Positions 496 through 62,423 of a DNA stretch of 64,000 nucleotides are shown here, piece by piece. A program made the translations under genes and the position numbers. This DNA is from a virus. The stretch lies in the IMG/VR virus record IMGVR_UViG_3300021961_000023; one strand, 5' to 3'. How positions within the stretch are numbered: position 1 is the stretch's first letter; each line of letters starts with the position of its first letter. The notes beneath the pieces were generated by a model that saw only the letters and a list, made by a program, of their open reading frames with translations, was not told where the DNA came from and ran no database searches.

Positions 496-1356
496 ATGAA
501 ACCTTTATTCATTTGGGCAGGTGGTAAAAATAAAATGTTGAAGCACTATCTGCCTCTGATGCCCACAGAGGTTAATAGTTATTGCGAACCATTCTTTGGT
601 GGTGGAGCAATGTTTATCCATGTTGTAAAAACTTATAACCCATCACGATTGGTAATCAATGACATCAATGATGATGTTATGAACATCTATCGTTCGATTG
701 CATATGATTATGAAGTTTTCAAAGATAGACTGAATAATCTTGAGGAAAAGTATATTCCTTTGGACAAAGCAGGTCGTAAAGCATTCTACTTTGAAGTGCG
801 ACATGAACATGCATATGATTATGAACAGTGGTCAAAACCAGTAGAAGCAGCAACTCTATACTTCTTGATGAAGACTGGTTTTAACGGTATCTATCAGTTG
901 AATAAAAATACCAATGGACGTTATGGAACTCCATCTGGATTATTAAATCAAAAGGATACTGTATATGATCGGGATGTGCTAGATTGGTGGCATCTTGTTC
1001 TACAAAAAACAGAGATTCTTTCTGGCGATTACAATAATGCAGTTCAGGATGTAAAATCTACTTTCCACTTTTTTGATCCTCCATATCGTGATAGTTTTGC
1101 AGATTATGGCAATGGATTCAGTGATGAGGATCTTCTGCACCTGATTGCAATTTCTGATCTGCGTAGGAATGTATTTCTATGTAATCGTGATAGTGGAGAT
1201 GGTTGGTTTGATGATCATAAGATGAGTCTCAATATTGCTAGATTCCCTGTAACTTATACTGCAGGACGACGTAAGAAAACTGATACAGGATTTGTGGCAA
1301 AACCTGCCACTGAAGTTTTGCTTTATCGTACAGTTCAAAATAATCTTTTTGAGTGA
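496..1356 (+). CDS. DNA adenine (N6) methyltransferase, Dam/D12 family; specificity probably not GATC
   Basis: WAGGK, EPFFGGGA (SAM binding), INDIN, DPPY catalytic motif, terminal EVL. Confidence 0.92.
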   Translation: MKPLFIWAGGKNKMLKHYLPLMPTEVNSYCEPFFGGGAMFIHVVKTYNPSRLVINDINDDVMNIYRSIAYDYEVFKDRLNNLEEKYIPLDKAGRKAFYFEVRHEHAYDYEQWSKPVEAATLYFLMKTGFNGIYQLNKNTNGRYGTPSGLLNQKDTVYDRDVLDWWHLVLQKTEILSGDYNNAVQDVKSTFHFFDPPYRDSFADYGNGFSDEDLLHLIAISDLRRNVFLCNRDSGDGWFDDHKMSLNIARFPVTYTAGRRKKTDTGFVAKPATEVLLYRTVQNNLFE

Positions 1357-1357
1357 T

Positions 1358-1783
1358 ATGTTTATTCCAGAATCTGAATATCAAAACATACTGAAGGTAA
1401 TGCCAGTCTTTTGTGTGGACTTTTTGATTAAATGTGATAATAAGTATCTGCTTATCAAAAGAACTCAAGAACCAGTGAAAGATGTTTATTGGGTGATTGG
1501 TGGAAGAATGAGATTTAAAGAAACTGTCAAAGACTTGGCATCAAGAGTTCAAACACGAGAGATTGGAAGATTTTTAGGAACAGGAAAAACGATAGGGTTT
1601 TCTAACTACCTCTTTCCAGATGTTCCTGATGCCAGAGCAACTCATACTCCAACTTTGCTACAACTTGTAGAAGTAAATCAGATGTTTGATCCTGTTCTTG
1701 ATGACACGAGTGCAGACTACATTTGGAGTGAAACTTTACCAGATGAACTTCTGAGACAAACTGAGTTTATTGTGCCAGTTTGA
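1358..1783 (+). CDS. NUDIX hydrolase (GDP-mannose mannosyl hydrolase-like)
   Basis: LLIKR..EP.K..YWVIGGRMRFKET......R....EIG modified Nudix box; ATG at 1358 directly follows the MTase stop. Confidence 0.8.
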   Translation: MFIPESEYQNILKVMPVFCVDFLIKCDNKYLLIKRTQEPVKDVYWVIGGRMRFKETVKDLASRVQTREIGRFLGTGKTIGFSNYLFPDVPDARATHTPTLLQLVEVNQMFDPVLDDTSADYIWSETLPDELLRQTEFIVPV

Positions 1784-1829
1784 AAAGTGGCACAGTGTTT
1801 TCCCACGGTACGGGAAAACTTGGTATTAT
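1771..1829 (+). promoter_or_regulatory. Early promoter cassette 1 (24-bp palindrome plus -10)
   Basis: TGTGCCAGT-TTGAAA-AGTGGCACA 1771-1794; TATTAT 1824-1829. Confidence 0.8.
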
Positions 1830-1854
1830 ACAAAGGTAATCAAGGGAATACCTG

Positions 1855-2046
1855 ATGGCACTCTCCTTTTCTTCCAGGGCACATCACATTGCTGCAGTGT
1901 ATGATGCTTGTGCTCTGATTCTTGATACCTACAAAGAATCTGATCTTTTCAAAGTTTATTCTGATGAAGGACTGGAAGATCACATCGATTTTGCTGCTAC
2001 GGCGCGTGAAATCATGGGTCTGATCGCTGAAGGTGACATCAAATGA
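1855..2046 (+). CDS. Hypothetical protein
   Basis: First ORF after promoter cassette 1. Confidence 0.65.
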   Translation: MALSFSSRAHHIAAVYDACALILDTYKESDLFKVYSDEGLEDHIDFAATAREIMGLIAEGDIK

Positions 2047-2201
2047 TTACTGACACTATTCAAGATAAACAGATTCGCCGTTCTATTCTGAAAGCAGTTG
2101 AATCTATGGATCTGCGTCTATTGCAACGTATTGCTTATGAAGTGCGTTGTGAAGAAATGGGGATTTACCCTGATGGTTGGAAACTTTACCCTGAAAACTG
2201 A
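2043..2201 (+). CDS. Hypothetical protein (52 aa)
   Basis: ATGA overlap with the upstream ORF; read manually. Confidence 0.6.
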   Translation: MITDTIQDKQIRRSILKAVESMDLRLLQRIAYEVRCEEMGIYPDGWKLYPEN

Positions 2202-2377
2202 TGAACGTAGTAACAATGGTTGAACTTGATACCTGTCAGATCAGGTATTTGATTGACTTGATGTGGAGTATGAATCCTTCTATGTCTTCCCAACTTGCTG
2301 TACGTCATGGTATTGATGATTCCACACTTGAAAGACAACTGCAGATTGCACTTGGATCAGCACTAGCAGAAATATGA
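2201..2377 (+). CDS. Hypothetical protein (58 aa)
   Basis: TGATG coupling; read manually. Confidence 0.55.
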   Translation: MNVVTMVELDTCQIRYLIDLMWSMNPSMSSQLAVRHGIDDSTLERQLQIALGSALAEI

Positions 2378-2511
2378 CTTTCTTTCTTTGGTGGTTGGGG
2401 TTAGCAACTCTTGCTCTTATCTTTAACTATTGTCTTCATGCTAATAATGATGACGACGACTGATAAACTTATCTTTATTTCTTCTTTCATCTGGTTTCTG
2501 CATTGGGGTCA

Positions 2512-2988
2512 ATGTCTTACATTTCGCATTCTGGATACGGTTATCGCAAGCGGGTCTGTGAGGATGTTACCTCTTGGTTTCTGAATAAGTTCTTTCCCCG
2601 TCACAAGATCACAGTGGATATTGTGCATCGTGGTTTGCGACGTGAAAATGTTTATGGGTATTGTGATGTTGTAGGTGACACTTATCGCCCGCGTCACTTT
2701 CTGATTGAACTGAATACCTACATGGATGATGAGTTGTATATAAAAACTCTTCTACATGAACTGACTCACATGAAACAGTGGGTGATTGGTTCGCTAAGAC
2801 AAAAGCGTGGAAAGATGTATTATGGTAAAGAATGTATGGAAGATGTGGATTATTGGCATCAGGCACACGAAGTAGAGGCACGAGAGCAAGAAGAAACACT
2901 ATATGTAGAGTATTTGTTTGATGAATTGAATGTGCCAGATCAAGAAGTGGCACATTACTTTCCCAATCGCTTGCTCCACACCCTATAA
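2512..2988 (+). CDS. Putative zincin-like metallopeptidase
   Basis: TLLHELTHMKQW (HExxH) and downstream HEVEA. Confidence 0.7.
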   Translation: MSYISHSGYGYRKRVCEDVTSWFLNKFFPRHKITVDIVHRGLRRENVYGYCDVVGDTYRPRHFLIELNTYMDDELYIKTLLHELTHMKQWVIGSLRQKRGKMYYGKECMEDVDYWHQAHEVEAREQEETLYVEYLFDELNVPDQEVAHYFPNRLLHTL

Positions 2989-2989
2989 T
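2931..2989 (+). promoter_or_regulatory. Early promoter cassette 2
   Basis: TGTGCCAGA-TCAAGA-AGTGGCACA; TATAAT 2984-2989. Confidence 0.8.
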
Positions 2990-3012
2990 AACAAGGTAAT
3001 CAAAAACAACTC

Positions 3013-3441
3013 ATGGCAACCCGCGCACGCATTGGTATTCAACTGAAGAACGGTTCTATCCTTTCTGTGTATCATCACTGGGACGGTTATCCTGAATGGT
3101 TGGGTCGTATTCTGAATACTCATTACAACACCCGTCAAAAAGTTGCTGAACTGATTGATGGTGGTGATATGAGTTCTTGCTGGACTGAAGACCGCTGGAA
3201 TAGTGAGACCAAAGCACAAGAATATGGTCCTCAGTATTATTCTCAACGTGGTGAGGATCTTCCTCCTCGTCTTGATGCTGACCTGTGTGAGTATCTTCTT
3301 CCCGATGGTGCAGAAGAGTATCATTATCTCTACACCGATCTTTATAGTGAACCTAAGTGGGTATGTTATAATATGCACCAGTTTGTTGACAGCAAACTCC
3401 CCGAAGTTGTTGAAATCCCCTCTGCTGCTCTCGCTGTTTGA
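3013..3441 (+). CDS. Conserved phage hypothetical protein
   Basis: MATRARIG...SVYHHWDGYP...G..L motif family. Confidence 0.75.
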   Translation: MATRARIGIQLKNGSILSVYHHWDGYPEWLGRILNTHYNTRQKVAELIDGGDMSSCWTEDRWNSETKAQEYGPQYYSQRGEDLPPRLDADLCEYLLPDGAEEYHYLYTDLYSEPKWVCYNMHQFVDSKLPEVVEIPSAALAV

Positions 3442-3444
3442 TCT

Positions 3445-3648
3445 ATGAAAACTACTATCGACATTCCAACTGCTATTGGTGTTATTGCTGGTGCTGTTGT
3501 TATTGTAACAGCAAGCATCCTATTTGAGGCATGGTTGCTTGGTCTTATTCTGTCGTGGTTCAATGTATCTTTGACCTTCTGGCAGAACCTTGCTATCATT
3601 ATTTTGGCAAACCTGATCTTTAAGAACTCTGGAGGTTCTTCTAAATGA
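3445..3648 (+). CDS. Small membrane protein
   Basis: Two hydrophobic segments. Confidence 0.65.
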   Translation: MKTTIDIPTAIGVIAGAVVIVTASILFEAWLLGLILSWFNVSLTFWQNLAIIILANLIFKNSGGSSK

Positions 3649-3767
3649 TTACTACTATTATGGCAGGATTTGCTTTTGGATATTGTGTGATGGACATTAT
3701 CCAAAACTATCGTGCCCGTCGCACTATGAATGAACTTCTTAAATCTACTCTGGAGAATGACAAATGA
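3645..3767 (+). CDS. Small hypothetical protein (40 aa)
   Basis: ATGA overlaps at both ends. Confidence 0.5.
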   Translation: MITTIMAGFAFGYCVMDIIQNYRARRTMNELLKSTLENDK

Positions 3768-4171
3768 AACAACAAAACGGATATTTTGACCCTGTTGCTA
3801 TTCTTTTTATTGGTGGTGTCTTTGTGATTGGTGGTCTCCTCTTTATTGGTGGTCCTCAATACAATGTGTGGCAACAATCTCTTGCTGGTAAAGCAGAACT
3901 ACAGAAAGCAGAATACACCCGACAGGTTGCAGTTCTGGAAGCACAAGCAAAGAAAGATTCGGCACAACAACTTGCTGATGCTGAAATCATCCGTGCTACT
4001 GGTGTTGCTAAAGCAAACCAAATCATCGGTGACTCCCTGAAAGATAACCGTGAGTATCTTCAGTATCTGTATATCACTGGCCTGGAAGAAGGCAGCAACA
4101 AAGGTAACGTGACCATTTACGTTCCCACTGAAGGTGGTATGCCAGTTCCTACTCTTCAGATGAATAGGTAA
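3764..4171 (+). CDS. Membrane-anchored SPFH/prohibitin-like coiled-coil protein
   Basis: N-terminal TM helix, AE/QA-rich coil, GVAKANQIIGDSL...YLQYLYI. Confidence 0.6.
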   Translation: MKQQNGYFDPVAILFIGGVFVIGGLLFIGGPQYNVWQQSLAGKAELQKAEYTRQVAVLEAQAKKDSAQQLADAEIIRATGVAKANQIIGDSLKDNREYLQYLYITGLEEGSNKGNVTIYVPTEGGMPVPTLQMNR

Positions 4172-4330
4172 CACTTTAGTAAAAACCTGATTTCTGGTTG
4201 TAGGGCAGGGTCCATTGGGCTCTGCCCTTAAAAATGCAAAAAATTTTGGTTTTTGCTCCAGTGGTGGACTGGGATCTCAGTGGGACTCAACGTTAGAATC
4301 CACTCTACACCAGACCTTCTGTGCATTTAA

Positions 4331-4389
4331 AAAACCAGTTGCCAAACTGGCACACTACCCACTTTCCACTGCCTGTCAAGACCTATAAT
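4331..4389 (+). promoter_or_regulatory. Early promoter cassette 3
   Basis: aaaaCCAGT-TGCCAA-ACTGGCACA; TATAAT 4384-4389; leader shared with cassette 2. Confidence 0.8.
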
Positions 4390-4413
4390 AACAAGGTAAT
4401 CGAAACCACGAAG

Positions 4414-4662
4414 ATGCCTGAGTTCTCTGGAGTTTTTCTGACCGTCCAAAATCATGGTTGCATTTACACTATTTGCACCGAAGGTGAACTGTTTTCTGCT
4501 CCCATCTACAAAGATGGTACTATGAACATGGAGGAGTTTGACCTTGTTGATTTTTACTCTGGTGATGAAGATGAAGTGGAGGAACTTGAAGGTATTCAAG
4601 CAGCACTGATTGATATGATGGTTCGCGTTGGTCTTTACTTCAAAAAACCCGTTGCAGCATGA
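4414..4662 (+). CDS. Hypothetical acidic protein
   Basis: ATG 4414 lies just after the promoter; the longer ORF-track start runs through the promoter. Confidence 0.65.
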   Translation: MPEFSGVFLTVQNHGCIYTICTEGELFSAPIYKDGTMNMEEFDLVDFYSGDEDEVEELEGIQAALIDMMVRVGLYFKKPVAA

Positions 4663-4811
4663 ACAGCAAAGCACTTGCATATGGTATACTGATTGCTGTT
4701 GGACTAATCGTATACAATGTATGGTTAGTCCAACGTGATCAAAAGTTGTTCAAAGCATATGATGCTTGCACACAGTTTACACATCACCCTGATTGCCCTT
4801 ACACAAAATGA
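4659..4811 (+). CDS. Small membrane protein (50 aa)
   Basis: ATGA coupling, N-terminal TM helix. Confidence 0.55.
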   Translation: MNSKALAYGILIAVGLIVYNVWLVQRDQKLFKAYDACTQFTHHPDCPYTK

Positions 4812-5080
4812 CCACAGTAAATGGACGACCAGTTATTGAACATGACTGGGAGGAAGAGTATCGAAAGCAGATGAAGTATCGTCTGTCAGAAGTTGTGAGT
4901 GAGTATCTTCAAGATGAAAAGATTTCTGTCCTTGGATTCTACAATGATCTGACTGATGAGATTAAAAGTTTGGTAGATTACCATAAAAAACACCAAGAAA
5001 AAGCAGAAGGTATGCTACACTTGGTAAATGGTACAAAACCTAACTCTGACTTTGACTGTATCACTGGCATTCCTTTTTAA
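4808..5080 (+). CDS. Hypothetical protein
   Basis: ATGA coupling. Confidence 0.65.
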   Translation: MTTVNGRPVIEHDWEEEYRKQMKYRLSEVVSEYLQDEKISVLGFYNDLTDEIKSLVDYHKKHQEKAEGMLHLVNGTKPNSDFDCITGIPF

Positions 5081-5081
5081 A

Positions 5082-5228
5082 ATGTACGAAGATTTTCAAA
5101 TGAATCACATGGACACTAAACTGAGCGGAATGAATCCTGATGAGTTCGTTGCATTTGTAGAAGAATGTGAGAAGGAGGCAGATCGTCTTGAAATCACAGT
5201 GGACTACTATATTGCAGAGTTCACTTAA
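5082..5228 (+). CDS. Small acidic hypothetical protein
   Basis: Ends LEITVDYYIAEF, a pattern typical of small cyanophage proteins. Confidence 0.6.
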   Translation: MYEDFQMNHMDTKLSGMNPDEFVAFVEECEKEADRLEITVDYYIAEFT

Positions 5229-5264
5229 TAATGCTATAATCTTTTTGTTAACTTACGGAGACTC

Positions 5265-5414
5265 ATGAAAAGAATCGTTGTTGATCTGACTGAAGAAGAG
5301 TTTGAATTTGTTGTAGATTCCCTTGAAACTCAGGGTAATCTCAATGATCTTTCCGATCTTGCAGATGACATCATTGATAAACTTTACGAAGGTTCAAAGG
5401 AACACTCTCTATGA
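5265..5414 (+). CDS. Small acidic hypothetical protein (49 aa)
   Basis: GGAG RBS and upstream TGcTATAAT. Confidence 0.6.
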   Translation: MKRIVVDLTEEEFEFVVDSLETQGNLNDLSDLADDIIDKLYEGSKEHSL

Positions 5415-5653
5415 AGTATGAACCCCAAGTCAACGATTATGTTATCTGGTCAGGTAGAGAACATGTTCAAGGTTGGGTATACTTCAAAGATAAAAACTAT
5501 GTAACCATAGAGACTCAGGTAATACCAAAACATCCTGAAAGTTACAAAGACTGTAAACTACATGAAAATCATAGAGTCTTAGTTCTTTGTTATAGAGAGC
5601 AATGGAATCACCTAAACTATGTCAGATCAAGGAGTACAAAGTATGAGTGCTGA
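5411..5653 (+). CDS. Conserved cyanophage hypothetical protein
   Basis: YEPQVNDYVIW...GWVYFK. Confidence 0.7.
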   Translation: MKYEPQVNDYVIWSGREHVQGWVYFKDKNYVTIETQVIPKHPESYKDCKLHENHRVLVLCYREQWNHLNYVRSRSTKYEC

Positions 5654-5897
5654 ATCAAACTATGAAAAACTCAAGGAGTACTTGACGATCAAGTATAACT
5701 ATCTGGCACAACTAGGTAGATTCAATCTTGGAGAACGGGAGGGTTTGGAATCAGAGTATCAATGGAGATTGATCAGCGATATTATGGAATATGTTGATAA
5801 GATTGATCAACTTGACTACTTGATTGATACAGTAAAAACAAAAAAGACATCTGATTTCACAGTTATTAACGGAAACCTAAACAATGACCAAGGTTAA
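5643..5897 (+). CDS. Hypothetical protein
   Basis: AGGAG RBS before ATG 5643. Confidence 0.6.
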   Translation: MSAESNYEKLKEYLTIKYNYLAQLGRFNLGEREGLESEYQWRLISDIMEYVDKIDQLDYLIDTVKTKKTSDFTVINGNLNNDQG

Positions 5898-6207
5898 AAC
5901 TCAGTCTAATCTGAGCAAGAATCTCAAAACTCTAACTGAAACTTCTCCTACAAAATCTAAAGTCAAACCTGAACCAAAAACTAAGGTTAAGACCAAAAAT
6001 ACTCCAGAAGAAATTAAAGCAGTTAGAAGTGCAGATAAAACTCTGTTTCCACATGTTACTTTTCCATATCGATTAGACGATAAGAAAGAAAATAAAGTCT
6101 GTTGGTTTTCATGTTATCACCATGCAGAAAAATATATTACACGCTACCGACTTTCATCTAAGGAATACAAATTATGGCACTGTCCCAATCTGTTGAAGAA
6201 TCCCTAA
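5884..6207 (+). CDS. Hypothetical basic protein
   Basis: FPYRL....KVCWF.C..HA.KYI.RY motif. Confidence 0.65.
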   Translation: MTKVKTQSNLSKNLKTLTETSPTKSKVKPEPKTKVKTKNTPEEIKAVRSADKTLFPHVTFPYRLDDKKENKVCWFSCYHHAEKYITRYRLSSKEYKLWHCPNLLKNP

Positions 6208-6398
6208 AAGAAGCAGAGGCATCTCTTCGCAATGCACTTGCGTATGCAGCACGTCAAGAACGTCCTGTTATATGCACAACGATTTCAAAAGTGATCCAAG
6301 AGATTGAAGCACTTCAAACATTTGATAGTTTGATGGACAAACTGGAGAATCGTAAACCTGGAAGCAGTGGTAACTTTGGTTCATTCTTTGGTGAGTAA
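6174..6398 (+). CDS. Conserved cyanophage hypothetical protein
   Basis: MALSQSVEESLKEAEASLRNALAYAARQERP. Confidence 0.7.
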   Translation: MALSQSVEESLKEAEASLRNALAYAARQERPVICTTISKVIQEIEALQTFDSLMDKLENRKPGSSGNFGSFFGE

Positions 6399-6496
6399 AG
6401 AACTGTTACAACACTCTAAAGACAAGATTAAGGATTACAACAACTCCCTTAAATACTGTTAGGATATGAACACAACACAAGTACGGGAGCATTTCT

Positions 6497-6661
6497 GTGA
6501 CACATTCATCAGGAAAAAAAGAAAAACTTACTGATGCCGAATGGAACGAAATGATTGCCTTAAAGAGAGCAATCAACCAGAGACCCCAATCAGTTCATCC
6601 TGATAAAATGGAAGAGTTTACTGAGTATTTGGTTCGTAGTTTAAGAGAAAAGGGTGGATGA
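6497..6661 (+). CDS. Hypothetical protein (54 aa, GTG start)
   Basis: GGGAG RBS; read manually. Confidence 0.55.
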   Translation: MTHSSGKKEKLTDAEWNEMIALKRAINQRPQSVHPDKMEEFTEYLVRSLREKGG

Positions 6662-6873
6662 CTAAACTTATTTCTAAATCTGATCCTCAATATTTTGAGG
6701 TTACATCGACTGAACTTTATGATCGTCATGATTACAAAGTAGTTCTCTCTAATCAGCAAAGTTTCACTTTTGATAACTATGCTGATTGTTTTGCTCTATG
6801 GATTAGAACTCCAGATGAGTTAAAAGGTTACGTTGAAGTATTAGATCGTAAGCAAAAGAAAGGATTCAAATGA
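6658..6873 (+). CDS. Hypothetical protein
   Basis: Coupled ORF ending KKGFK. Confidence 0.65.
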   Translation: MTKLISKSDPQYFEVTSTELYDRHDYKVVLSNQQSFTFDNYADCFALWIRTPDELKGYVEVLDRKQKKGFK

Positions 6874-7079
6874 ATATCAGACAACATCAAATAAAATCCA
6901 GTTGGTATTACATCTTTTGGGGTGCTATGGCAGTTGCTGTGGTTGGCGGACAAATCTATGTTGGCACAGGATACCGTGAGATGGCAAAGGCATCGCGTGA
7001 CACTGCAATAACTGTCACATGCATACCAGAATATCACTCCACACCTGTTAAACTGAACAGGTCTGGAGAATTTGAATGA
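6870..7079 (+). CDS. Small membrane protein
   Basis: TM helix; coupled. Confidence 0.65.
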   Translation: MNIRQHQIKSSWYYIFWGAMAVAVVGGQIYVGTGYREMAKASRDTAITVTCIPEYHSTPVKLNRSGEFE

Positions 7080-7357
7080 CCCTTGATTTTCCTCATACAG
7101 CACCAGAAGGTTATCGCTATGAAACTGAACCCTTTAAACGTAATGTTGATGCAATCTGGATTCATCATTGTCGCAGGTTTGATTACAATCTTGGTAGCGA
7201 CGTTCGTTGTATCTGGGGATTCTACAACAACAAAACAAAAGAATACTTCGCACCCATTAATAGTAAGACCGTTGGTAAGCGCGTAGATATCAAAGAAACT
7301 ACACCTTATTCTGCAATGCAGATTAAAATGACTCCACTTGAACGAGCATTCATATGA
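7076..7357 (+). CDS. Conserved cyanophage hypothetical protein
   Basis: FPHTAPEGY...IWGFY....TTPYSAM. Confidence 0.7.
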   Translation: MTLDFPHTAPEGYRYETEPFKRNVDAIWIHHCRRFDYNLGSDVRCIWGFYNNKTKEYFAPINSKTVGKRVDIKETTPYSAMQIKMTPLERAFI

Positions 7358-7644
7358 AACTGATTAAGTTTAATCATCGAGAAGACTTTGGACATGAGTG
7401 GTATGTTCAACTTCTTAATATCAAAGGGTGGTCACTCTTTCAAGGATCTGTAACTTGGAATGATTACCCATCTTGGCCTTATCTTCAAATCAAATCAGGA
7501 ACTGGTAGCACACTGAGCATACTCTTTTGGGCATATAAGTTTGGATTTGATTTAGACATTCTTTCCCGTACTTGGCACTGGGATTGGTTAGACAAAGCAA
7601 ATGAGGAAAGTGAAGATGTACAGCACTCTGGTCCGTGGGACTGA
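7354..7644 (+). CDS. Hypothetical aromatic-rich protein
   Basis: Coupled ORF. Confidence 0.65.
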   Translation: MKLIKFNHREDFGHEWYVQLLNIKGWSLFQGSVTWNDYPSWPYLQIKSGTGSTLSILFWAYKFGFDLDILSRTWHWDWLDKANEESEDVQHSGPWD

Positions 7645-8011
7645 TAAAAAAGGAGTTAAACTAAACTGGTGGGAATATTGGATTGGTCATTGTTGGATGA
7701 CTGGGTGGCAGAGCATTGCGATGACTTTTCGCATTTGGTCTGATTTAATGTGTTCTAACTACGATGGTTATGCTCTACTTAAAGGAGATGATCCAGAAGG
7801 TGAATGTATAGAATGGTTCTGGGCATCACTAAATGAAGATGATGTTTATCCTAAAGAGTTTCTTGAGGAACTCATGCAAATGGCAGATGATGTGGAGACT
7901 GGTAAAGTAAAGACATATCCATTACCTGAAGACTTCTTTGATAAAATGAAAGATCTTGTGGGTGATATTGAAGTAAACTTAAATGAGCAGTTACCTGATG
8001 AAACTACCTGA
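7601..8011 (+). CDS. Hypothetical Trp-rich protein (start may be 7616)
   Basis: ORF track, operon continuity. Confidence 0.65.
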   Translation: MRKVKMYSTLVRGTDKKGVKLNWWEYWIGHCWMTGWQSIAMTFRIWSDLMCSNYDGYALLKGDDPEGECIEWFWASLNEDDVYPKEFLEELMQMADDVETGKVKTYPLPEDFFDKMKDLVGDIEVNLNEQLPDETT

Positions 8012-8048
8012 CGATAATCAACTGAATATTATGTGGAGTGTGGCAACG

Positions 8049-8108
8049 TCGTCCAGTATTGAAAGTGGCACACGCCCCCACCTAATCTTTGCCAGGTTGC
8101 TGTATAGT
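8049..8108 (+). promoter_or_regulatory. Early promoter cassette 4
   Basis: tcGTCCAGT-ATTGAA-AGTGGCACA; TATAGT 8103-8108. Confidence 0.7.
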
Positions 8109-8145
8109 ACTCTTACAAACGAAAAACCACGGGTAGGACTTGCAA

Positions 8146-8544
8146 ATGACGTACAAAGCATCTCTTAAAGTTCAGTTTGATACTGAATGGACTTCCACTC
8201 ATTATAGCAGTGGTTTTGATGATTCAATGCTCCCCGAAGAGCATTATACTTTTCAGGTTCCTGCCGAAGACCTTAACACTTATCAACTGTTTCGTTTTTT
8301 CGCAACTGTTGCCCGTGCAATGGGACACGATGACATCAACATTATGAAAGGTGCTTGTGGTCTTGCATTTGGTGAAGAGAGGAAACCAGAAGATATGCGT
8401 AAAGTTGCCGAAGAGTTTGAACTGACTCTTGCAGAAGATTTGCAAGATAAGTTCAAAGATTGGAAAGAAGCAGAAGCAGAATGGGAGCGTCTTAAAAAGG
8501 GTCCTATGGGAACTGTTCTGGCTGATGATGTTGAAGCAGAATGA
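8146..8544 (+). CDS. Hypothetical protein
   Basis: AGGA RBS; first gene after cassette 4. Confidence 0.65.
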   Translation: MTYKASLKVQFDTEWTSTHYSSGFDDSMLPEEHYTFQVPAEDLNTYQLFRFFATVARAMGHDDINIMKGACGLAFGEERKPEDMRKVAEEFELTLAEDLQDKFKDWKEAEAEWERLKKGPMGTVLADDVEAE

Positions 8545-13683: not shown

Positions 13684-13685
13684 TC

Positions 13686-54268: not shown

Positions 54269-54290
54269 TTAAAATAAAAAATCTAAATAA

Positions 54291-54314: not shown

Positions 54315-54328
54315 AGTAGGTAAGTGAA

Positions 54329-54677: not shown

Positions 54678-56458
54678 AATATCAAAAGTTTTCTCATAAA
54701 ACACCACACCTTAAGGGTAAGCAACATCAGTTGGATCCAAATTTGGATCTGAAGCAACTTGTCCATCATGCAACTGTTCAGTATGTTGATCGTGATGCAG
54801 ACGGTGATGTGGATGTTTATGACACCCCCAAGAAAAAAACTCCAGATGAGAATCCTGTTGGAGACTATGTATCGAAGTCTAAAAAACTGATTGCAAAACA
54901 AAAGGGTGAAATCAAACATACCAAAAGAGGTATGGCTTTTGAAGAAAAGGAGAACGGTCGTTGTAAATCAGGTCATTACTATTGCTATACAGATAAAAAA
55001 TGCAAACCAATTCCTTCTGGATTTATGGTAGATCCAGAAGGAATGCTCCGCAAGGAAAATGGACATTCAGTTGATGATGTCAATGAAGAAGGGCTTCGTG
55101 ACTGGTTTGGCAAATCAAAATCAAAAGATGGAAAATCTGGATGGGTAAATGTCGTAACTGGTGGTACTTGCGCTAGTGATGAACCTGGAGAAGGAACTCC
55201 AAAATGCGTTTCTTCAGCAAAAAGAGCAAGTATGACTAAAGCAGAAAGGTTATCTGCGGCAAGAAGAAAAAAAGCAGCTGATCCTGGTCAGCAACAAAAA
55301 ACTGGTGCTGCAAAACCAACATATGTTTCAACTGATAAACCAAAGAAAAAAATGAACGAAGCAAAAGAAAAAGATCATGAATATTCAATGGCTCGTTCAG
55401 AACTTTCTACGATCATGAACGCTGCTAAAAGACTTAAATCCAAAATGAAAGGTGAAGGTAATATTGAGGCATGGGTTCAATCAAAAATCACTAAAGCAGC
55501 AGATTACTTAGATGCTGCAGCTGACTATGTTGACAGTGGAGAAATGAATGAAGAAGCAGATAAATCAGGAAAGTCTAGTGGTAAAAAAGACGCTTGCTAC
55601 CACAAAGTCAAATCTCGTTATAGAGTTTGGCCAAGTGCATACGCTTCAGGTGCCCTTGTAAAGTGTCGCAAAGTTGGTGCTGATAGTTGGGGTACAAAAT
55701 CAGAATCAATCACCATTGAAACCGCAGACGGTAGGACATACGCTGAGTTTATTGATATCATTGGATCTGAAGAAATGCTAGAGGCAGCAAAAAAATGCTG
55801 GCCTGGTTACAAAAAAACAGGGACACAAAAACTCTTCGGCAAAACTTATAATCGTTGCGTAAAAGAAGATGAGCATGAAAAAGAAGAAAAAATAGAATGT
55901 TCTCATACAAAGAAAGGCATTCAATGTCCTATTCATGGAGAAGATGAGTGTCCATTAGTTAAAGGAATGAAACAAGAAGTTGATGAAGCAGTAAGAATTC
56001 CTGCAAAAACTGGCAATATTATTCTTGTAACTCTTTCCTGGAGAGGAAAAGTTTACATGATTAAGATGTTTTTCCCTCAGGTTTCTAAACCAAGCAGAAG
56101 TGATGTTCAACTTCAGATTGATAAAGTTTATCCTGGGGCAAGAGTTAACTCATATTACATTTCAGAAATAAAACCTGGAGAACAGTTTTTACAAACTGAG
56201 GATTGGCAATCAGTTAATCGTAAAGACAAAACTGATGGTTTAAGTCAAAAAGCAGTTGATGCTTATCGTAGCGAAAATCCAGGTTCAAAACTTCAGACTG
56301 CAGTGACAGAAAAGAAACCAGAAGGTAAAAGAGCGAAACGTCGTGCTTCTTTCTGTCGTCGTATGAAAGGAATGAAATCAAAACTAACTAGTGCAAAAAC
56401 TGCACGAGATCCAGATTCAAGAATCAACAAAGCACTCCGTCGTTGGAACTGTAACTAA
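54674..56458 (+). CDS. Modular Lys/Cys-rich protein, candidate internal head polyprotein (DUF6321-like C-terminus)
   Basis: ATGA coupling at 54674; basic modules separated by xxE junctions; ends RRASFCRRM.G...SRINKALRRWNC. Confidence 0.7.
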   Translation: MKYQKFSHKTPHLKGKQHQLDPNLDLKQLVHHATVQYVDRDADGDVDVYDTPKKKTPDENPVGDYVSKSKKLIAKQKGEIKHTKRGMAFEEKENGRCKSGHYYCYTDKKCKPIPSGFMVDPEGMLRKENGHSVDDVNEEGLRDWFGKSKSKDGKSGWVNVVTGGTCASDEPGEGTPKCVSSAKRASMTKAERLSAARRKKAADPGQQQKTGAAKPTYVSTDKPKKKMNEAKEKDHEYSMARSELSTIMNAAKRLKSKMKGEGNIEAWVQSKITKAADYLDAAADYVDSGEMNEEADKSGKSSGKKDACYHKVKSRYRVWPSAYASGALVKCRKVGADSWGTKSESITIETADGRTYAEFIDIIGSEEMLEAAKKCWPGYKKTGTQKLFGKTYNRCVKEDEHEKEEKIECSHTKKGIQCPIHGEDECPLVKGMKQEVDEAVRIPAKTGNIILVTLSWRGKVYMIKMFFPQVSKPSRSDVQLQIDKVYPGARVNSYYISEIKPGEQFLQTEDWQSVNRKDKTDGLSQKAVDAYRSENPGSKLQTAVTEKKPEGKRAKRRASFCRRMKGMKSKLTSAKTARDPDSRINKALRRWNCN

Positions 56459-56775
56459 TGAAAAGTTTTAAGCAATTCTTATCAGAGTCAGTAAATATCT
56501 CTGGTGATTTCAATGGAAACTTGTATATAAACTCTCAACCAGAAGAACCACAACAGGTTGGAGAGAGTTATGCTGCTGATGTTATGTGGCAGGGTAGCAT
56601 CTACAGATTAGAGTTAATAACTAAATCTGGACTGCCAACTAAACAAGAACTAGGTGAACAACTTCAAGGAGAATATCCTGGTGCAGTTGTGCAACAAATT
56701 TATCCAGCAATGGAAAAAAATCAAAATATTACAAATATAAAAAGATACCATCCATCAAAGTTAGAGTGGATTTGA
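56458..56775 (+). CDS. Hypothetical protein with capsid-targeting-like N-terminus
   Basis: MKSFKQFLSES. Confidence 0.7.
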   Translation: MKSFKQFLSESVNISGDFNGNLYINSQPEEPQQVGESYAADVMWQGSIYRLELITKSGLPTKQELGEQLQGEYPGAVVQQIYPAMEKNQNITNIKRYHPSKLEWI

Positions 56776-56779
56776 TTTT

Positions 56780-58219
56780 ATGGCACAGTGGAATATACAG
56801 ATTCAAGATTATTTAAATCAAGAAAGATCTTTATTTGAAGTTGTTGGAGTTGCTTCCAGTGATGGGCAAATTATTAGTATTGAAAATCCATTTCCAGTTA
56901 CGGGTACTATTGGAATACAAACTGGATCGGGCTTAATTATTAATCCAGATACCACATCATATGATGCTTTTGGTAGACAAAGAATTTCTGAACCATTTAC
57001 CCTTGGTGATTATAAACATCTATATGCTATTGATACTAATTTTATAGACAGTTCATCAGGAGCTGGTTCAACAGTTTCGTTGATACCAAACCAAGCAGCA
57101 GCAAGATTACAAACGGGTATTGGAAGTACAGCATTTTGTATTCATCAAACAAAGTTTTATCATCACTATCAACCAGGAAAATCACAACTAATTTTTAGTT
57201 CTTTTAATTTCTATGCACCTCAGCAAAATGCAACAAAAAGAACTGGATATTTTGATGATAGAGATGGTATTTACTTAGAGCAAGTAGGTCTTAACACATC
57301 TAATGGTATTAACGCTGGTATAGGAACCTATAACTGGGTCATCAGAACTTTTACAAGTGGTATTGCAACTGAAACAAGAATTCCACAATCACAATGGAAT
57401 AAAGATAAGTGTGATGGAACTGGTACTTCTGGTTTCAATGCCGACTTTACAAAAACTCAACTAGCATTTATTGATTTTCAGTGGTTAGGTGTTGGTAGAG
57501 TTCGTTGTGGTTTTGCTCATGATGGAAAATTAATTACAGCACATGAATTTTATCACTCAAACAATAATCCAAATGTTTATATTTCAAATCCAAACCTACC
57601 AGTTCGTTGTGAAATAAGAAATACTGGTGTAGGTATTGGAGCATCGTTTGATCAAATCTGCTCTACTGTTGCTAGTGAAGGTGGATATGTAGAAAGCGGT
57701 GTTGATTTTGCATATACGATGGAAACTACACGAACAGTCGTAGCTCCAGGTGGAACAGAACTCCCACTAGTTGCAATTCGTCTCAAAAATAATTTCCAAG
57801 GATATCCAAACAGAATATCAGTTAGATTAAATAATATTTCTCTTTATGCGGAGACTAATAGTATTGTTTATAAAATAGTTAAACTTCCAAGCACTGCTTA
57901 TATTGGACTAACCACTTTAGGTAGTGGAACTATTTGGACTTCTGCTTCTGCTAATAGTGGAGTTGAATATTGCACTAACGCTACAGTTTATAGTGATGGT
58001 GATGTGTTTGCTTCTGGATATGTACCATCAGGCGCATCTCAGAACTCATTGTCTCCAGTTGCATCTGGGGCACTTACATCAGCAAAGAAAAACATTATTG
58101 TTCAAAATATTGACTCAACAAATTCAGAAATTTACGCAATTATTGTAAGAACAGTATCAACTAGTGTTGGTGCCGTTGCCCAAGTAGCAGCTTCACTTCA
58201 GTGGAGAGAAATTTATTAA
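56780..58219 (+). CDS. Beta-rich hypothetical (probably virion) protein
   Basis: DAFGRQRISEPFTL; YQPGKSQ; DFQWLGVGRVRCGF. Confidence 0.7.
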   Translation: MAQWNIQIQDYLNQERSLFEVVGVASSDGQIISIENPFPVTGTIGIQTGSGLIINPDTTSYDAFGRQRISEPFTLGDYKHLYAIDTNFIDSSSGAGSTVSLIPNQAAARLQTGIGSTAFCIHQTKFYHHYQPGKSQLIFSSFNFYAPQQNATKRTGYFDDRDGIYLEQVGLNTSNGINAGIGTYNWVIRTFTSGIATETRIPQSQWNKDKCDGTGTSGFNADFTKTQLAFIDFQWLGVGRVRCGFAHDGKLITAHEFYHSNNNPNVYISNPNLPVRCEIRNTGVGIGASFDQICSTVASEGGYVESGVDFAYTMETTRTVVAPGGTELPLVAIRLKNNFQGYPNRISVRLNNISLYAETNSIVYKIVKLPSTAYIGLTTLGSGTIWTSASANSGVEYCTNATVYSDGDVFASGYVPSGASQNSLSPVASGALTSAKKNIIVQNIDSTNSEIYAIIVRTVSTSVGAVAQVAASLQWREIY

Positions 58220-58228
58220 GGTGAAAAT

Positions 58229-59872
58229 ATGAGTGAAGTTTATCTTGGTAATCCAAATCTTAAAAAAGCAAATACTGTAATTGAGTTTAGTGAAGATCAG
58301 ATTCTTGAATTTATTAAATGTAAAAATAATCCAGTATACTTTGCAAAAAACTATGTAAAGATTGTAACTCTTGATCATGGTTTACAACCTTTTGAGATGT
58401 ATCCCTTTCAAGAGAAATTGATTCGTAACTTCCATGATCACAGATTTAATATCTGTAAGATGCCTAGACAAACAGGTAAGTCAACAACTTGTGTTTCTTA
58501 TCTATTACATTATGCGGTTTTTAATGACAATATCAATATTGCTATTCTTGCAAATAAAGCATCAACTGCAAGAGATCTTTTAAGTAGGTTACAACTTGCG
58601 TATGAAAACTTGCCTAAGTGGATGCAACAAGGTATCTTATCATGGAATAAAGGTTCTTTAGAGTTAGAAAATGGCAGTAAGATATTGGCAGCTTCTACAT
58701 CTGCGAGTGCTGTCCGAGGCGGTTCATATAATGTCATCTTCCTCGACGAGTTCGCTTTCATTCCAAACCATATTGCAGACCAATTCTTTGCATCTGTTTA
58801 TCCTACTATTTCTTCTGGTAAGAGCACAAAAGTTATCATAGTTTCAACTCCACACGGTATGAATCATTTCTACCGTATGTGGCATGATGCAGAAAAAGGA
58901 GCAAATGAATATATTCCAACTGATGTTCATTGGACTGAAGTGCCAGGAAGAGACTTGGAGTGGAAAAGGCAGACGATTGCAAACACATCTGAGCAACAGT
59001 TTAAAGTTGAGTTTGAATGTGAGTTTTTAGGTTCAGTTGATACTCTGATTGCACCAAGTAAACTAAGATCGTTGGTATATGAAAATCCTAAAACTGGAAA
59101 TGCTGGGTTGGATGTCTATGAAGATCCTATTGATAACCATGATTATATTATTACTGTTGACGTTGCCCGTGGAGTTGGTATCGACTATTCTGCTTTTGTT
59201 GTTATAGATATTACAACATTTCCTCATAAAGTTGTTGCAAAATATAGAAATAATGAAATCAAACCTATGTTATTTCCAAATGTAATTTGGGAAATAGCAA
59301 AATCATATAATCAGGCATTTATCTTATGTGAAGTAAATGATGTTGGTGATCAAGTAGCATCTATTCTTCAATATGATTTAGAGTATCAAAATCTTCTTAT
59401 GTGTTCAATGAGAGGAAGAGCAGGTCAAATTGTTGGACAAGGATTTTCAGGCAAAAAAACTCAACTTGGTGTCAAGATGAGTAAGACTGTCAAAAAAGTT
59501 GGAGCACTCAATCTAAAAACAATGATTGAGGAAGACAAGTTATTGATTAATGATTATGAAATCATTTCAGAACTTACAACTTTTATTCAAAAAAATAACT
59601 CGTTTGAAGCAGAAGATGGATGTAATGATGACCTAGCAATGTGTCTTGTAATCTATGCGTGGTTAGTAGCTCAAGATTATTTTAAAGAACTGACCGATCA
59701 AGATGTTCGCAAAAGACTTTATGAGGAGCAAAAAAATCAAATAGAACAAGATATGGCACCATTTGGATTTGTTTCAGATGGTTTAGATAATCCTAGTTTT
59801 GTAGACTCTGATGGAGATAGGTGGTTTGCTGATGAATATGGAGATAGATCATTTATGTGGGAGTATTTGTGA
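58229..59872 (+). CDS. gp17: Terminase large subunit gp17
   Basis: PRQTGKST Walker A, IFLDEFAF Walker B, VDVARG and DDLAM nuclease motifs. Confidence 0.97.
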   Translation: MSEVYLGNPNLKKANTVIEFSEDQILEFIKCKNNPVYFAKNYVKIVTLDHGLQPFEMYPFQEKLIRNFHDHRFNICKMPRQTGKSTTCVSYLLHYAVFNDNINIAILANKASTARDLLSRLQLAYENLPKWMQQGILSWNKGSLELENGSKILAASTSASAVRGGSYNVIFLDEFAFIPNHIADQFFASVYPTISSGKSTKVIIVSTPHGMNHFYRMWHDAEKGANEYIPTDVHWTEVPGRDLEWKRQTIANTSEQQFKVEFECEFLGSVDTLIAPSKLRSLVYENPKTGNAGLDVYEDPIDNHDYIITVDVARGVGIDYSAFVVIDITTFPHKVVAKYRNNEIKPMLFPNVIWEIAKSYNQAFILCEVNDVGDQVASILQYDLEYQNLLMCSMRGRAGQIVGQGFSGKKTQLGVKMSKTVKKVGALNLKTMIEEDKLLINDYEIISELTTFIQKNNSFEAEDGCNDDLAMCLVIYAWLVAQDYFKELTDQDVRKRLYEEQKNQIEQDMAPFGFVSDGLDNPSFVDSDGDRWFADEYGDRSFMWEYL

Positions 59873-60102
59873 TGGATTTGGATAAGCAACTAAAACTAGG
59901 ACATCTACTACTAAACGAAAGAAGATGTAGAGTTTGTGGAGAGTTTAAAGATCTTATTGATGGTTTTTATCGAACTCGTAAAGATAAAGGACCAGTAGCA
60001 TCATCGTATTCATATGAATGTAAAGACTGCACAAAAAAGAGAGTTGTTGTATCTAGAATGACAACTAGAATACTTGATAGATGGGAATATCCTGACTGGT
60101 AG
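59872..60102 (+). CDS. Small zinc-ribbon protein
   Basis: CRVC...FY.....SYECKDC. Confidence 0.7.
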   Translation: MDLDKQLKLGHLLLNERRCRVCGEFKDLIDGFYRTRKDKGPVASSYSYECKDCTKKRVVVSRMTTRILDRWEYPDW

Positions 60103-60142
60103 TGTTCACGTCAAGTTTTCTCCCCTGAAACTTAATATTTTA

Positions 60143-60149
60143 ATAAATA
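60143..60149 (+). promoter_or_regulatory. T4-type late promoter
   Basis: ATAAATA upstream of gp18. Confidence 0.65.
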
Positions 60150-60185
60150 TTTTTAGTTAAACTGAAATCTCAGGAGACAACAAAC

Positions 60186-62423
60186 ATGGCAACTCCTCAA
60201 TTATCTCCAGGCGTACTCGTCAGAGAGGTTGATTTAACAGTAGGGAGAGCTGATAATGTTTTAGATAATATTGGTGCGATTGCTGGTCCATTCTCTCAAG
60301 GTCCTGTTGAGGAAATCGTAAATATCACCACTGAGCAGGAACTGATTAACGTTTTTGGCAAACCTCTTTCCACTGATAATCAATTTGAGTACTGGATGAC
60401 TGCATCTTCCTTCCTTTCTTATGGAGGAGTTCTTAAGGTCATCAGAAGCAGCGATGCTAACCTCAATAATGCTAATGCGGGTGTGGGTGTAGCGAGTGAC
60501 ACCACACTATTAATCAAAAATAAGGATGATTACGAAATCAATCATTCTGAAGATGCTGTTCAGTTCTTCTATGCAGCAAGAAATCCAGGTAGCTGGGCAG
60601 AATCTTTAAAAGTATGTCAGATTGACGATTTTGCAGATCAAAGACTTTATTTCAACAGCACAAACCTTGCTGGTCTTGGTTTAACTGTTGGTTTTGCAAT
60701 CACCGCAAGCATTCCTGCTGGCACTGCTTTAATCGGTGTTGGAACAACTTCTTCAACCAATGCAGTTCTTAAGGGTATCATTACTGGTGTTAGCACAAAC
60801 AGCAATGATGGTTCTAAGTCATATGTTGATGTAAGAGTTGTTGCCAGAACACTCGCAGTTGGTGGTGGAAGTACCTCTACAAATATTGATTATGCAGAGA
60901 ATGATCCTACTGCATCATTTACTCTAACTGGCGCTGGTTCCAGTGTAGTTATCAGCACTGTTAACACTTCTGGTGTTGCAGTTACATCTAACACTTGTTT
61001 TGCTTTAGAAGATTGGTATGATCAACAAATTCTTGACCTAACTAATACAACTCTTTATTGGAAGGCACTAGCTCCAAAACCAACAAGTAACTCATATGTT
61101 ACTGATCGTGGTGGAAAGAACGATGGTATCCATATCGCAGTTGTCGATGATCTTGGTACTATCACTGGTTCTTCTGGAAATCTTTTAGAAGTACACCTGA
61201 ATCTTTCTAAAGCATATGATGCTGTAAGAGATCAAAGATCAGTATTCTACAAAGATTACATCCGCGACAACTCAAACTATATTTGGATTGGACGTAACCA
61301 GTCAAGTTCATATGTCGCTAATGTAGGTAACGTTGTTCCAACAATCTACCCAACTTCATCTGGGTTCACAACTGCTGGTACAAATACTGGAGTAAGTCTT
61401 GGCGATGGTCTGTGGGGTCTTCCTGCACAAAATACTACTTATTCAGTTGTTGGTAACAAAGGTTTCAGACTGATTGGCGGTAAAGACTATCAAGATTCTG
61501 GTAATAACAACGGATTTGAGGCTAAACTAGGTGACCTGGTAAATGCCTACGAACTCTTCAACGATGTTGAAGGTGTTGAGGTAGATTACTTACTCATGGG
61601 TCCTGGTCTCAGCAAGAAGTCAGAGTCTCAAGCAAAAGCAAACTACCTAATTTCGATTGCTGGACAAAGAAAAGACTGCATGGCAGTTCTTTCTCCTCAT
61701 AGATCTGATGTTGTTAACGTATCAAACTCAAATGATCAAACAGACAACATCCTTGCATTCTATGGTCCATTAGCATCATCTTCGTATGCAGTATTTGATA
61801 CTGGATACAAATATACTTATGATCGCTTTAATAATGAGTTCCGCTACATCCCAACCAATGGAGACGTTGCTGGACTAATGGTTAGAACTTCTATCTTTGC
61901 ATATCCTTGGTTCTCACCTGCTGGTCAACAGCGTGGCATTCTGAACAATGCTATCAAACTAGCATATAATCCAACCAAGGCACAAAGAGATCGTCTCTAT
62001 CCTAAGAGAATTAACCCAATCTCCAATCAACCAGGTATTGGTATTCTTCTCTTTGGTGATAAGACTGCTCTTGGATATGCTTCTGCATTCGATAGAATCA
62101 ACGTTCGTCGTCTGTTCCTCACCATTGAACAAGCACTTCAAAGAGCAGCACAAGCTCAACTCTTTGAACTCAATGATGATATTACAAGATCTAACTTTGT
62201 TAACATTGTTGCTCCATACCTCCGCGACATTCAAGCAAAGAGAGGTCTCTATGACTTCTTAGTTGTTTGTGATGAAACAAACAACACTCCAGATGTCATT
62301 GACAATAATGAGTTTAGAGCGGACATTTATCTGAAGCCCGCTAAGTCGATTAACTTCGTCACACTCACCTTTGTTGCCACCAGAACTGGTGTCAGCTTTG
62401 ATGAGGTTGTAGGTCGAGTTTGA
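60186..62423 (+). CDS. gp18: Tail sheath protein gp18
   Basis: SPGVLVREVDLT; PWFSPAG..RG; FDRINVRRLF. Confidence 0.97.
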   Translation: MATPQLSPGVLVREVDLTVGRADNVLDNIGAIAGPFSQGPVEEIVNITTEQELINVFGKPLSTDNQFEYWMTASSFLSYGGVLKVIRSSDANLNNANAGVGVASDTTLLIKNKDDYEINHSEDAVQFFYAARNPGSWAESLKVCQIDDFADQRLYFNSTNLAGLGLTVGFAITASIPAGTALIGVGTTSSTNAVLKGIITGVSTNSNDGSKSYVDVRVVARTLAVGGGSTSTNIDYAENDPTASFTLTGAGSSVVISTVNTSGVAVTSNTCFALEDWYDQQILDLTNTTLYWKALAPKPTSNSYVTDRGGKNDGIHIAVVDDLGTITGSSGNLLEVHLNLSKAYDAVRDQRSVFYKDYIRDNSNYIWIGRNQSSSYVANVGNVVPTIYPTSSGFTTAGTNTGVSLGDGLWGLPAQNTTYSVVGNKGFRLIGGKDYQDSGNNNGFEAKLGDLVNAYELFNDVEGVEVDYLLMGPGLSKKSESQAKANYLISIAGQRKDCMAVLSPHRSDVVNVSNSNDQTDNILAFYGPLASSSYAVFDTGYKYTYDRFNNEFRYIPTNGDVAGLMVRTSIFAYPWFSPAGQQRGILNNAIKLAYNPTKAQRDRLYPKRINPISNQPGIGILLFGDKTALGYASAFDRINVRRLFLTIEQALQRAAQAQLFELNDDITRSNFVNIVAPYLRDIQAKRGLYDFLVVCDETNNTPDVIDNNEFRADIYLKPAKSINFVTLTFVATRTGVSFDEVVGRV

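Follow-up and report, generated by a model that had tools for sequence, protein, structure and literature searches.

Does a virus that has lost most copies of a short palindrome from its DNA also encode the enzymes that account for the loss? This question is raised by a 64,000-nt stretch from the IMG/VR record IMGVR_UViG_3300021961_000023 (hereafter the window, meaning the whole stretch, given as one strand; 37% guanine plus cytosine, GC), in which the tetranucleotide AATT is strongly depleted and which contains genes for a putative EcoRI-like nuclease (P0001) and for a variant of the Dam family of adenine methylases (P0002). The initial annotation of this DNA had linked these three features as a dispersed system by which the phage distinguishes self from non-self, and in the present study this reading was supported by the nuclease fold, the pairing of the two genes, and the association across phages. 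We consider it probable that the phage encodes an AATT-specific Type II restriction-modification (R-M) system, and that it protects its own DNA by methylation together with a purge of the sites.

Nearly all of the coding in the window lies on the plus strand and includes T4-type structural genes (gp6, a 4341-aa giant protein, TerL, gp18, and gp19). Megablast with 3.5 kb of the window found no close DNA relative among GenBank phages, and the tail sheath shares 62% identity with that of a marine single-cell virus contig and 44% with that of Prochlorococcus phage P-SSM2. Together, these observations identify the source, as far as its genes indicate, as a divergent T4-like cyanomyovirus.

AATT depletion in the window

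The depletion of AATT was confirmed. The window contains 156 copies, against 615 expected by base composition (observed/expected ratio, O/E, 0.25) and 448 expected by an order-2 Markov model (O/E 0.35). When synonymous codons were permuted within each of 84 plus-strand open reading frames (ORFs), which preserves the protein sequence and the codon usage, 144 copies were observed against 534.8 +/- 15.4 expected (O/E 0.27, z -25.3), and AATT was the most extreme outlier among all 256 tetranucleotides. The manual counts in the initial annotation proved to be exact (3 AATT and 10 TTAA in gp6, 5 AATT in gp18, 6 in gp17, and 1 in the methyltransferase gene), and its remark that codon pairs dodge the word also holds, GAG, AAG, and CAG displacing GAA, AAA, and CAA before TTN. 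Before TTN, Glu is encoded by GAA 11 times and by GAG 79 times (735 and 355 overall), Lys by AAA 6 times and by AAG 53 times (688 and 321 overall), and Gln by CAA 10 times and by CAG 31 times; Asn before T is AAT in 32 cases and AAC in 154 (749 and 246 elsewhere), and the ATT codon is avoided when the preceding codon ends in A.

Non-coding DNA (5023 bases) is depleted as well, with 10 AATT outside ORFs or straddling an ORF edge against about 48 expected. All 10 NAATTN contexts are depleted (O/E from 0.05 to 0.54), and the depletion is even along the whole 64 kb; thus, it is the DNA itself, rather than its translation, on which the avoidance acts. A depletion limited to early or structural regions was rejected from this evenness and from the complete genomes described below, which were sampled throughout. 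Words one transition away from AATT are enriched (AACT/AGTT, 1.81; AATC/GATT, 1.41), as expected if AATT was mutated away. The hexanucleotides with an AATT core are at expectation once the depletion of the tetranucleotide is conditioned on, and therefore the avoided word is 4 bp long; a 6-bp target, GAATTC or CAATTG, was rejected because the 6-mers carry no signal beyond the 4-mer.

It is extremely improbable that the depletion arose without selection, as a by-product of base composition, amino-acid content, or biased use of dinucleotides or codons. Such a by-product could be suspected from ATTA and ATTT, AT-rich words that overlap AATT and are mildly low under the codon shuffle, and from two phages that lack the nuclease and have a composition O/E of 0.3-0.4. 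However, the codon shuffle and the order-2 Markov model both leave a strong deficit, non-coding DNA is equally depleted, TTAA and ATAT, with the same composition as AATT, are near expectation in the window, and close relatives of the same GC content are undepleted; these results exclude an artefact of composition or codons.

One gene in the window forms an exception. The virion structural gene phrog_1645 contains 16 AATT (O/E 1.15), against O/E values of 0.0-0.4 in the neighboring genes, and its nearest DNA matches, at 78-80% identity, lie in contigs with normal AATT frequency. It is probably a recent recombinational import in which the purge is still pending. Since this gene carries AATT at a normal frequency, residual sites are tolerated in the window, as expected with a working methylase, which is predicted.

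Other words are also missing. CCGG is absent from the window (0 copies against 39-77 expected), and the RGCY words (GGCC, AGCT, and GGCT/AGCC) have O/E values of 0.1-0.3. This depletion of CCGG and RGCY is common to nearly all cyanomyovirus relatives and is equal with or without the nuclease; therefore it has a cause separate from that of AATT avoidance, presumably a host-related one.

The EcoRI-like nuclease and the Dam-family methylase

P0001 (Table 1) contains the elements CAPDGG...FESKKQG..GNAIERW, and P67, D68, E83, K85, Q87, and G91-N-A-I-E-R-W97 are invariant in 33 homologues. D68, E83, and K85 align with PDGG...EAKHQG of EcoRI, in the same order as EcoRI D91, E111, and K113. The catalytic D, E, and K are intact in all 81 loci, and PD..ExK and GNAIER are kept across homologues at 29-92% identity, with GNAVER in one lineage (L017/L018). 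P0001 alone gave no match in a search of PDB; the family profile gave EcoRI as the sole match (E 4e-4), with PDGG, EAKxQG, and GNAIER aligned. With an AlphaFold2 model of P0001 (pLDDT 86.9), the top five Foldseek matches were all EcoRI (E 5e-7, TM score 0.66-0.68), and VIA-align superposed the model on EcoRI with Z 14.7-14.9 and a root-mean-square deviation of 2.4-2.7 A over 153-154 of the 181 residues, the next fold having Z 9.9. Judged from this model, P0001 has the EcoRI fold; the AATT-core nuclease fold claimed in the initial annotation corresponds to a 181-aa ORF that combines this predicted fold with the AATT-reading motif of EcoRI.

In EcoRI, the side chain of Arg145 and the main chain of Asn141 and Ala142, within the GNAIER motif, contact the inner AT/TA pairs; the star activity of the enzyme is N^AATTN, and EcoRI, MunI, and the AATT cutter MluCI have been grouped as possibly mosaic relatives (PMC4081073). 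The inner arm that EcoRI has between KHQG and GNAIER is absent in P0001, in which Q87-G88 almost abuts G91-N92. Furthermore, the residue before GNAIER varies in the phage family, so that no conserved reader of the outer base pair is left there. These two differences fit recognition of the bare AATT core.

P0002 matches the Pfam family PF02086 (E 6.6e-30, 105 bits, cut-off 22) and conserves the catalytic motif FFDPPY and the motif FFGGGA; its best PDB matches are DpnM (E 3e-21) and Escherichia coli Dam (EcoDam; E 3e-10). In the EcoDam-DNA structure, K9 and R124 read the outer G:C pairs of GATC. When P0002 was aligned to 2g1p and 2dpm, I6 was found at the position of K9 and Q134 at that of R124. 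Among the nuclease-linked orthologues, Q occupies the R124 position in every one readable there, and I, M, V, or T stands in place of K9 in all of them but L065, where K is kept. By these sequence comparisons P0002 belongs to the Dam fold family, but the label of a GATC Dam would be inappropriate. Every cyanomyovirus checked also has a second, "core" methylase of the D12 class, with FKWTGGK...FNGIWQG, the K9 equivalent kept, and Q at the R124 position (40672-41409 in G009; about 128-139 kb in W01-W06; also L252 and L253).

Table 1. Features of the window discussed in the text
Feature	Position	Strand	Basis
AATT palindrome depletion in coding and non-coding DNA, in every flanking context	1..64000	.	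Word counts
Nuclease P0001, 181 aa, EcoRI-like PD-(D/E)XK family, predicted AATT endonuclease	18486..19031	+	Motifs, profile, fold
Methylase P0002, 286 aa, variant of the Dam-family (D12 class) N6-adenine DNA methyltransferases, predicted AATT methylase	496..1356	+	Pfam, motifs, linkage
Terminator-like hairpin (18237-18258) and weak sigma-70-like site (18361-18389) upstream of the nuclease gene	18237..18389	+	Motif scan
Virion structural gene phrog_1645, exception with AATT at normal frequency	56780..58219	+	AATT counts, DNA matches

The hairpin and the sigma-70-like site upstream of the nuclease gene may lend weak support to a separate transcription unit. A promoter of its own for this gene finds no support above chance, the count of such sites being no higher than in shuffled sequence.

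Gene linkage and AATT depletion across phages

In 62 of the 80 IMG/VR loci with the nuclease, a methylase orthologue (44-65% identity, 32% in one case) lies downstream on the same strand. The gap between the two genes is mostly 4-100 nt; a few gaps are about 180-770 nt, and the rest are about 1-1.5 kb and contain one extra ORF. In the window the genes are 17 kb apart, and a complete 190-kb relative (G009) has the same split, at about 18 kb. The cultured Synechococcus phage S-RIM2 has the layout with the extra ORF (SWTG_00030, SWTG_00031, SWTG_00032), its nuclease being annotated as hypothetical. Among GenBank phages, 65 records contain the nuclease and 64 records a methylase of >60% identity, the next methylase matches being of <35% identity; among the matches listed, the GenBank carriers are all members of the S-RIM2 lineage or phages closely related to it (S-BM1 and S-CREM2). 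The position of the methylase orthologue directly downstream of the nuclease in most relatives, which is the classical layout of an R-M cassette, argues for a real conserved R-M pair that appears to be dispersed in the lineage of the window and G009, in agreement with the term used in the initial annotation. The extra ORF (339-351 aa; L013 10797-11816, and SWTG_00031 of S-RIM2 at L171 6620-7675) showed no significant family, only a faint match to DUF6551 (E 0.07).

AATT depletion was compared with gene presence across cyanophages. In this comparison O/E is by base composition unless marked Markov, and 60 kb was sampled across each complete genome. The median O/E is 0.29 for 80 loci with the nuclease, versus 0.85 both for 80 control loci around the closest TerL relatives (78-92% identity) and for 80 control loci surrounding the nearest homologues of the gene that immediately precedes the nuclease gene; of the latter, 0/80 contain the nuclease or the methylase. 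The difference between nuclease loci and controls is significant (Mann-Whitney p ~1e-20), as far as p-values can be trusted for loci whose shared ancestry makes them less independent than assumed and for which clustering at 60% identity is a partial correction. After such clustering, 14 of 19 nuclease clusters have a pooled O/E <0.5, against 4/80 and 5/80 of the control loci. In a scan of the 136 reverse-complement tetranucleotide classes, only AATT separated the sets strongly (ratio 0.35, p 1.5e-27); the next-best words, several of which overlap AATT, stay at ratios of 0.8-1.25.

The same scan bears on the idea that the nuclease serves in homing, repair, or recombination and has another or a longer target, its link to an AATT-related methylase being due to chance. 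T4-like phages have many small endonucleases, and dimerization and cleavage by P0001 are predictions only. Nevertheless, we regard this idea as quite unlikely: the GNAIER motif is invariant, the fold is specific to EcoRI, the operon with the methylase is conserved, and AATT is the single word that tracks the nuclease gene, with no 6-bp signal beyond the 4-mer.

Table 2. AATT in phages and contigs with and without the nuclease gene
Phage or contig	Nuclease gene	Nuclease and methylase genes	AATT O/E
G013	yes	adjacent pair	0.99
G014	yes	adjacent pair	0.83
G015	yes	adjacent pair	0.53
G012	yes	adjacent pair	0.44
Window	yes	split pair	0.25
S-CREM2	yes		0.25
S-RIM2	yes		0.18
G009	yes	split pair	0.09
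G011	yes	adjacent pair	0.08
G007	yes	nuclease, no methylase found	0.00
P-SSM2	no		0.82
Bellamy	no		0.78
S-RIM50	no		0.74
S-SSM5	no		0.73
S-RIM12	no		0.62
S-RIM14	no		0.61
ACG-2014f	no		0.40 (Markov 0.69)
S-H34	no		0.31 (Markov 0.75)

S-RIM2, S-RIM12, S-RIM14, and S-RIM50 (Table 2) belong to one isolate series from neighboring northeast US coastal waters; the record of S-RIM2 names Synechococcus WH7803 as the host, and the others name just Synechococcus or no host. The data support the conclusion that it is the nuclease that AATT depletion follows from phage to phage, rather than a shared culture host or a genomic region.

A different explanation would be that the natural hosts carry an AATT-cutting enzyme, that the phages purge the word and carry the methylase for protection, and that the nuclease is a passenger. 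Classical restriction avoidance can erase a word, and CCGG is absent from the window and from many relatives; moreover, metagenomic contigs come without an assignment to a natural host. However, within the RIM series the nuclease carrier S-RIM2 alone is depleted. Among 185,579 prokaryote species genomes, just one contained the nuclease family, on a 2.9-kb contig of a metagenome-assembled genome (MAG), in a search with exact peptide patterns that distant bacterial relatives would escape. The catalytic and recognition residues of the nuclease are kept over deep divergence, whereas a passenger would decay, and the nuclease persists without a detected methylase in an AATT-free lineage. The host enzyme, which the initial annotation had offered as the alternative, is thus weakened by the undepleted RIM phages and by the near absence of the family from prokaryotes, and we now consider it rather unlikely.

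This AATT-free lineage stands at one end of a graded series (Table 2). Its member G007 (IMGVR_UViG_3300021960_000030, L165-L170; 111,864 bp, 63% complete) has 0 AATT against 599 expected and an intact nuclease ORF (L039 9950-10528). No D12 or N6_N4 methylase was detected in G007 and two sister contigs (G006-G008, 74-112 kb), a negative that for G007 covers 63% of the genome, so that the remaining 37% could hold one. The ORF just downstream of the G007 nuclease resembles the 2OG-Fe(II) oxygenase / endonuclease V phrogs, not a methylase, and G007 is without CCGG as well as without AATT. At the other end of the series are G013, a 316-kb jumbo-phage contig, and G014, in which the cassette lies in backgrounds unlike those of cyanomyoviruses and AATT is undepleted.

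It has also to be considered that methylated AATT itself may be harmful, through methyl-dependent host nucleases or interference with transcription, in which case the purge would be due to the methylase and not to the nuclease. The two genes co-occur almost perfectly, and correlation cannot separate them in most loci. However, the most purged lineage, G006-G008, has the nuclease and neither class of methylase detectably, and a costly methylase would just be lost; thus we think that this explanation is very unlikely.

The R-M pair of G013, which is present without depletion, suggests that methylation alone can protect. The purge would then be a slower second layer, and once it is complete the methylase may no longer be needed; this order of events is our inference. 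If it is true, G007 represents a state in which the rule for self and non-self is written solely in the absence of a word. More tentatively, cyanomyoviruses might routinely carry minimal 4-bp cutters in one hypervariable island and shift over time from methylation to protection by avoidance only, a generalization that we hold to be possible but less likely than the R-M system itself. The same logic may apply to other lineage-specific tetranucleotide gaps, such as those of GATC in S-RIM50 and TTAA in S-RIM14, and to "victim" phages that lack several such words.

These two gaps were observed as follows. S-RIM50, which is without the AATT nuclease, has a GATC O/E of 0.15 (60-kb sample, L260-L262). 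Its island upstream of the helicase, at the same place as in S-RIM2, contains the gene of a canonical D12 Dam and, immediately after it, that of a 144-aa PD-(D/E)XK protein (PDDEXK_11, PF20472, E 9e-12; KU594605.1 37941-39262, L308); for GATC, this pair is a candidate equivalent of the AATT system. S-RIM14 (KX349298.1; L263-L265) has 0 TTAA in 60 kb against about 450 expected, with AATT near normal, and several of the TerL loci, including L128, L118, and L086, are TTAA-poor as well. As for a TTAA-related cassette in S-RIM14, only the core D12 methylase was found, with nothing obvious at 36-44 kb, a stretch that is not clearly the equivalent island.

Proposed mechanism and known systems

In the mechanism that we favor, this T4-like cyanomyovirus would carry its own Type II R-M system. 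A minimal EcoRI-like endonuclease would recognize the bare 4-bp core AATT, and a Dam-derived adenine methylase that has lost both guanine-reading residues would most likely methylate AATT; the two would be encoded in one nuclease-then-methylase cassette in most relatives, and by separated genes in the lineage of the window. Unmethylated AATT would be cleaved by the nuclease in the DNA of the host, of competitor phages that infect the same cell, or of both. Protection of the phage's own genome would be twofold, the residual sites being methylated and the other sites having been purged by selection. Any AATT that escapes methylation during rapid replication would be a potential double-strand break, so that synonymous and neighboring-base changes that destroy AATT would be favored; the direction of causation would thus run from the enzymes to the purge.

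Several points weigh against this proposal. The AATT specificity of P0001 is deduced from its motif, its fold, and the genomic correlation, and P0001 itself falls short of the Pfam EcoRI model PF02963 (no Pfam match at E<=1), several homologues carrying a precomputed match to it. For the methylase, the core Dam-like enzymes of other cyanophages have Q at the R124 position too, with the lysine kept. Because ordinary cyanophage enzymes share this Q, the residue argument for retargeting is weaker than first thought and suggestive only; of the Dam variant shifted toward NATT that the initial annotation had proposed, the replacement of both K9 and R124 stands, and the part of the argument that relies on Q does not distinguish the variant from its ordinary relatives. 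Among the phages, the nuclease-negative ACG-2014f and S-H34 are low by composition (order-2 Markov, 0.69-0.75), and the TerL loci L082, L117, L124, and L160 are AATT-poor with no nuclease match, on contigs that are 7-26% complete and hence uninformative. Conversely, G013, G014, and L064 (O/E 0.85) carry the adjacent pair without depletion, and the shared ancestry of the loci reduces the weight of the p-values given above. Finally, CCGG has reached zero in the window, and no phage CCGG nuclease came to light, none having been sought; total loss of a word can thus arise by other routes, presumably host enzymes.

The proposal addresses how T4-like cyanophages with ordinary bases tell their own from host DNA during takeover, and a phage AATT cutter combined with a self-purged genome would be a concrete and testable answer. 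A cultured carrier exists in S-RIM2 on Synechococcus WH7803, with >60 sequenced isolates. If the proposal is true, the tetranucleotide signature of marine phages, which is widely used for binning and host prediction, would owe part of its shape to the phages' own weapons, or to those of phages infecting the same cell, in addition to host restriction. The nuclease family would be the smallest EcoRI-type enzyme known, and the methylase would represent a natural retargeting of Dam from GATC to AATT, informative on the evolution of specificity in both enzyme classes. For cyanophages, a literature search found nothing relevant on avoidance of AATT, on nucleases like EcoRI, or on R-M systems, and a marine methylome paper reported AATT methylation solely in Acidimicrobiia MAGs. 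Virus-encoded R-M systems and restriction-site avoidance are already known ideas; their combination in a lytic T4-like phage appears to be new, as do the minimal EcoRI-type enzyme, the predicted retargeted Dam, and a purge that reaches zero.

P0001 shares the alpha-class PD-(D/E)XK fold with the Type IIP group of EcoRI, RsrI, MunI, and MluCI (G^AATTC, C^AATTG, ^AATT), has the catalytic D, E, K, and Q in the same order as EcoRI, and contains an identical GNAIER element. It differs from EcoRI in its length (181 aa versus 277 aa), in the marginal sequence similarity of the phage family, seen by profile, in the essentially virus-confined distribution of this family, and in its partner methylase, which is Dam-like (D12 class) and not of the EcoRI methylase type. 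P0002, in turn, shares PF02086, DPPY, the FxGxG S-adenosylmethionine motif, and overall length with the GATC enzymes of the D12 class, i.e., E. coli Dam, T4 Dam, and DpnM. However, the two residues that contact the outer G:C pairs in EcoDam are replaced in the P0002 family, K9 by I, M, or V and R124 by Q; this genome shows no avoidance of GATC; and P0002 is genetically coupled to an AATT-type nuclease.

T4 degrades host DNA with EndoII and EndoIV and marks its own DNA with hydroxymethylcytosine. A T4-type phage needs a rule for its own versus host DNA if a nuclease is to destroy the one and spare the other. The self-mark of T4 is a genome-wide base replacement, whereas cyanomyoviruses use ordinary cytosine, and here the mark would lie in a 4-bp word, through its methylation, its absence, or both. 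The window also resembles other cases of restriction-site (palindrome) avoidance in that a short palindrome is under-represented, partly through synonymous codon choice, but here the enzyme that would explain the avoidance is encoded by the phage, and the presence or absence of its gene predicts avoidance among close relatives.

Parallels exist among viruses of eukaryotes. For chlorovirus R-M systems such as CviAI/M.CviAI, degradation of host DNA and recycling of nucleotides were proposed, and for the GATC R-M system of Marseilleviridae clade A, exclusion of co-infecting viruses (PMC7253447). In these viruses, as is predicted for the window, a lytic virus encodes a short-site endonuclease and a cognate methylase (PMC7253447). 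However, they are giant viruses of eukaryotes that protect themselves by methylation, and the passage that describes them does not say that their genomes have been purged of the cognate site (PMC7253447). Here, in contrast, the host is cyanobacterial, the site is AATT, and the site has been purged from the phage genome, completely so in one lineage.

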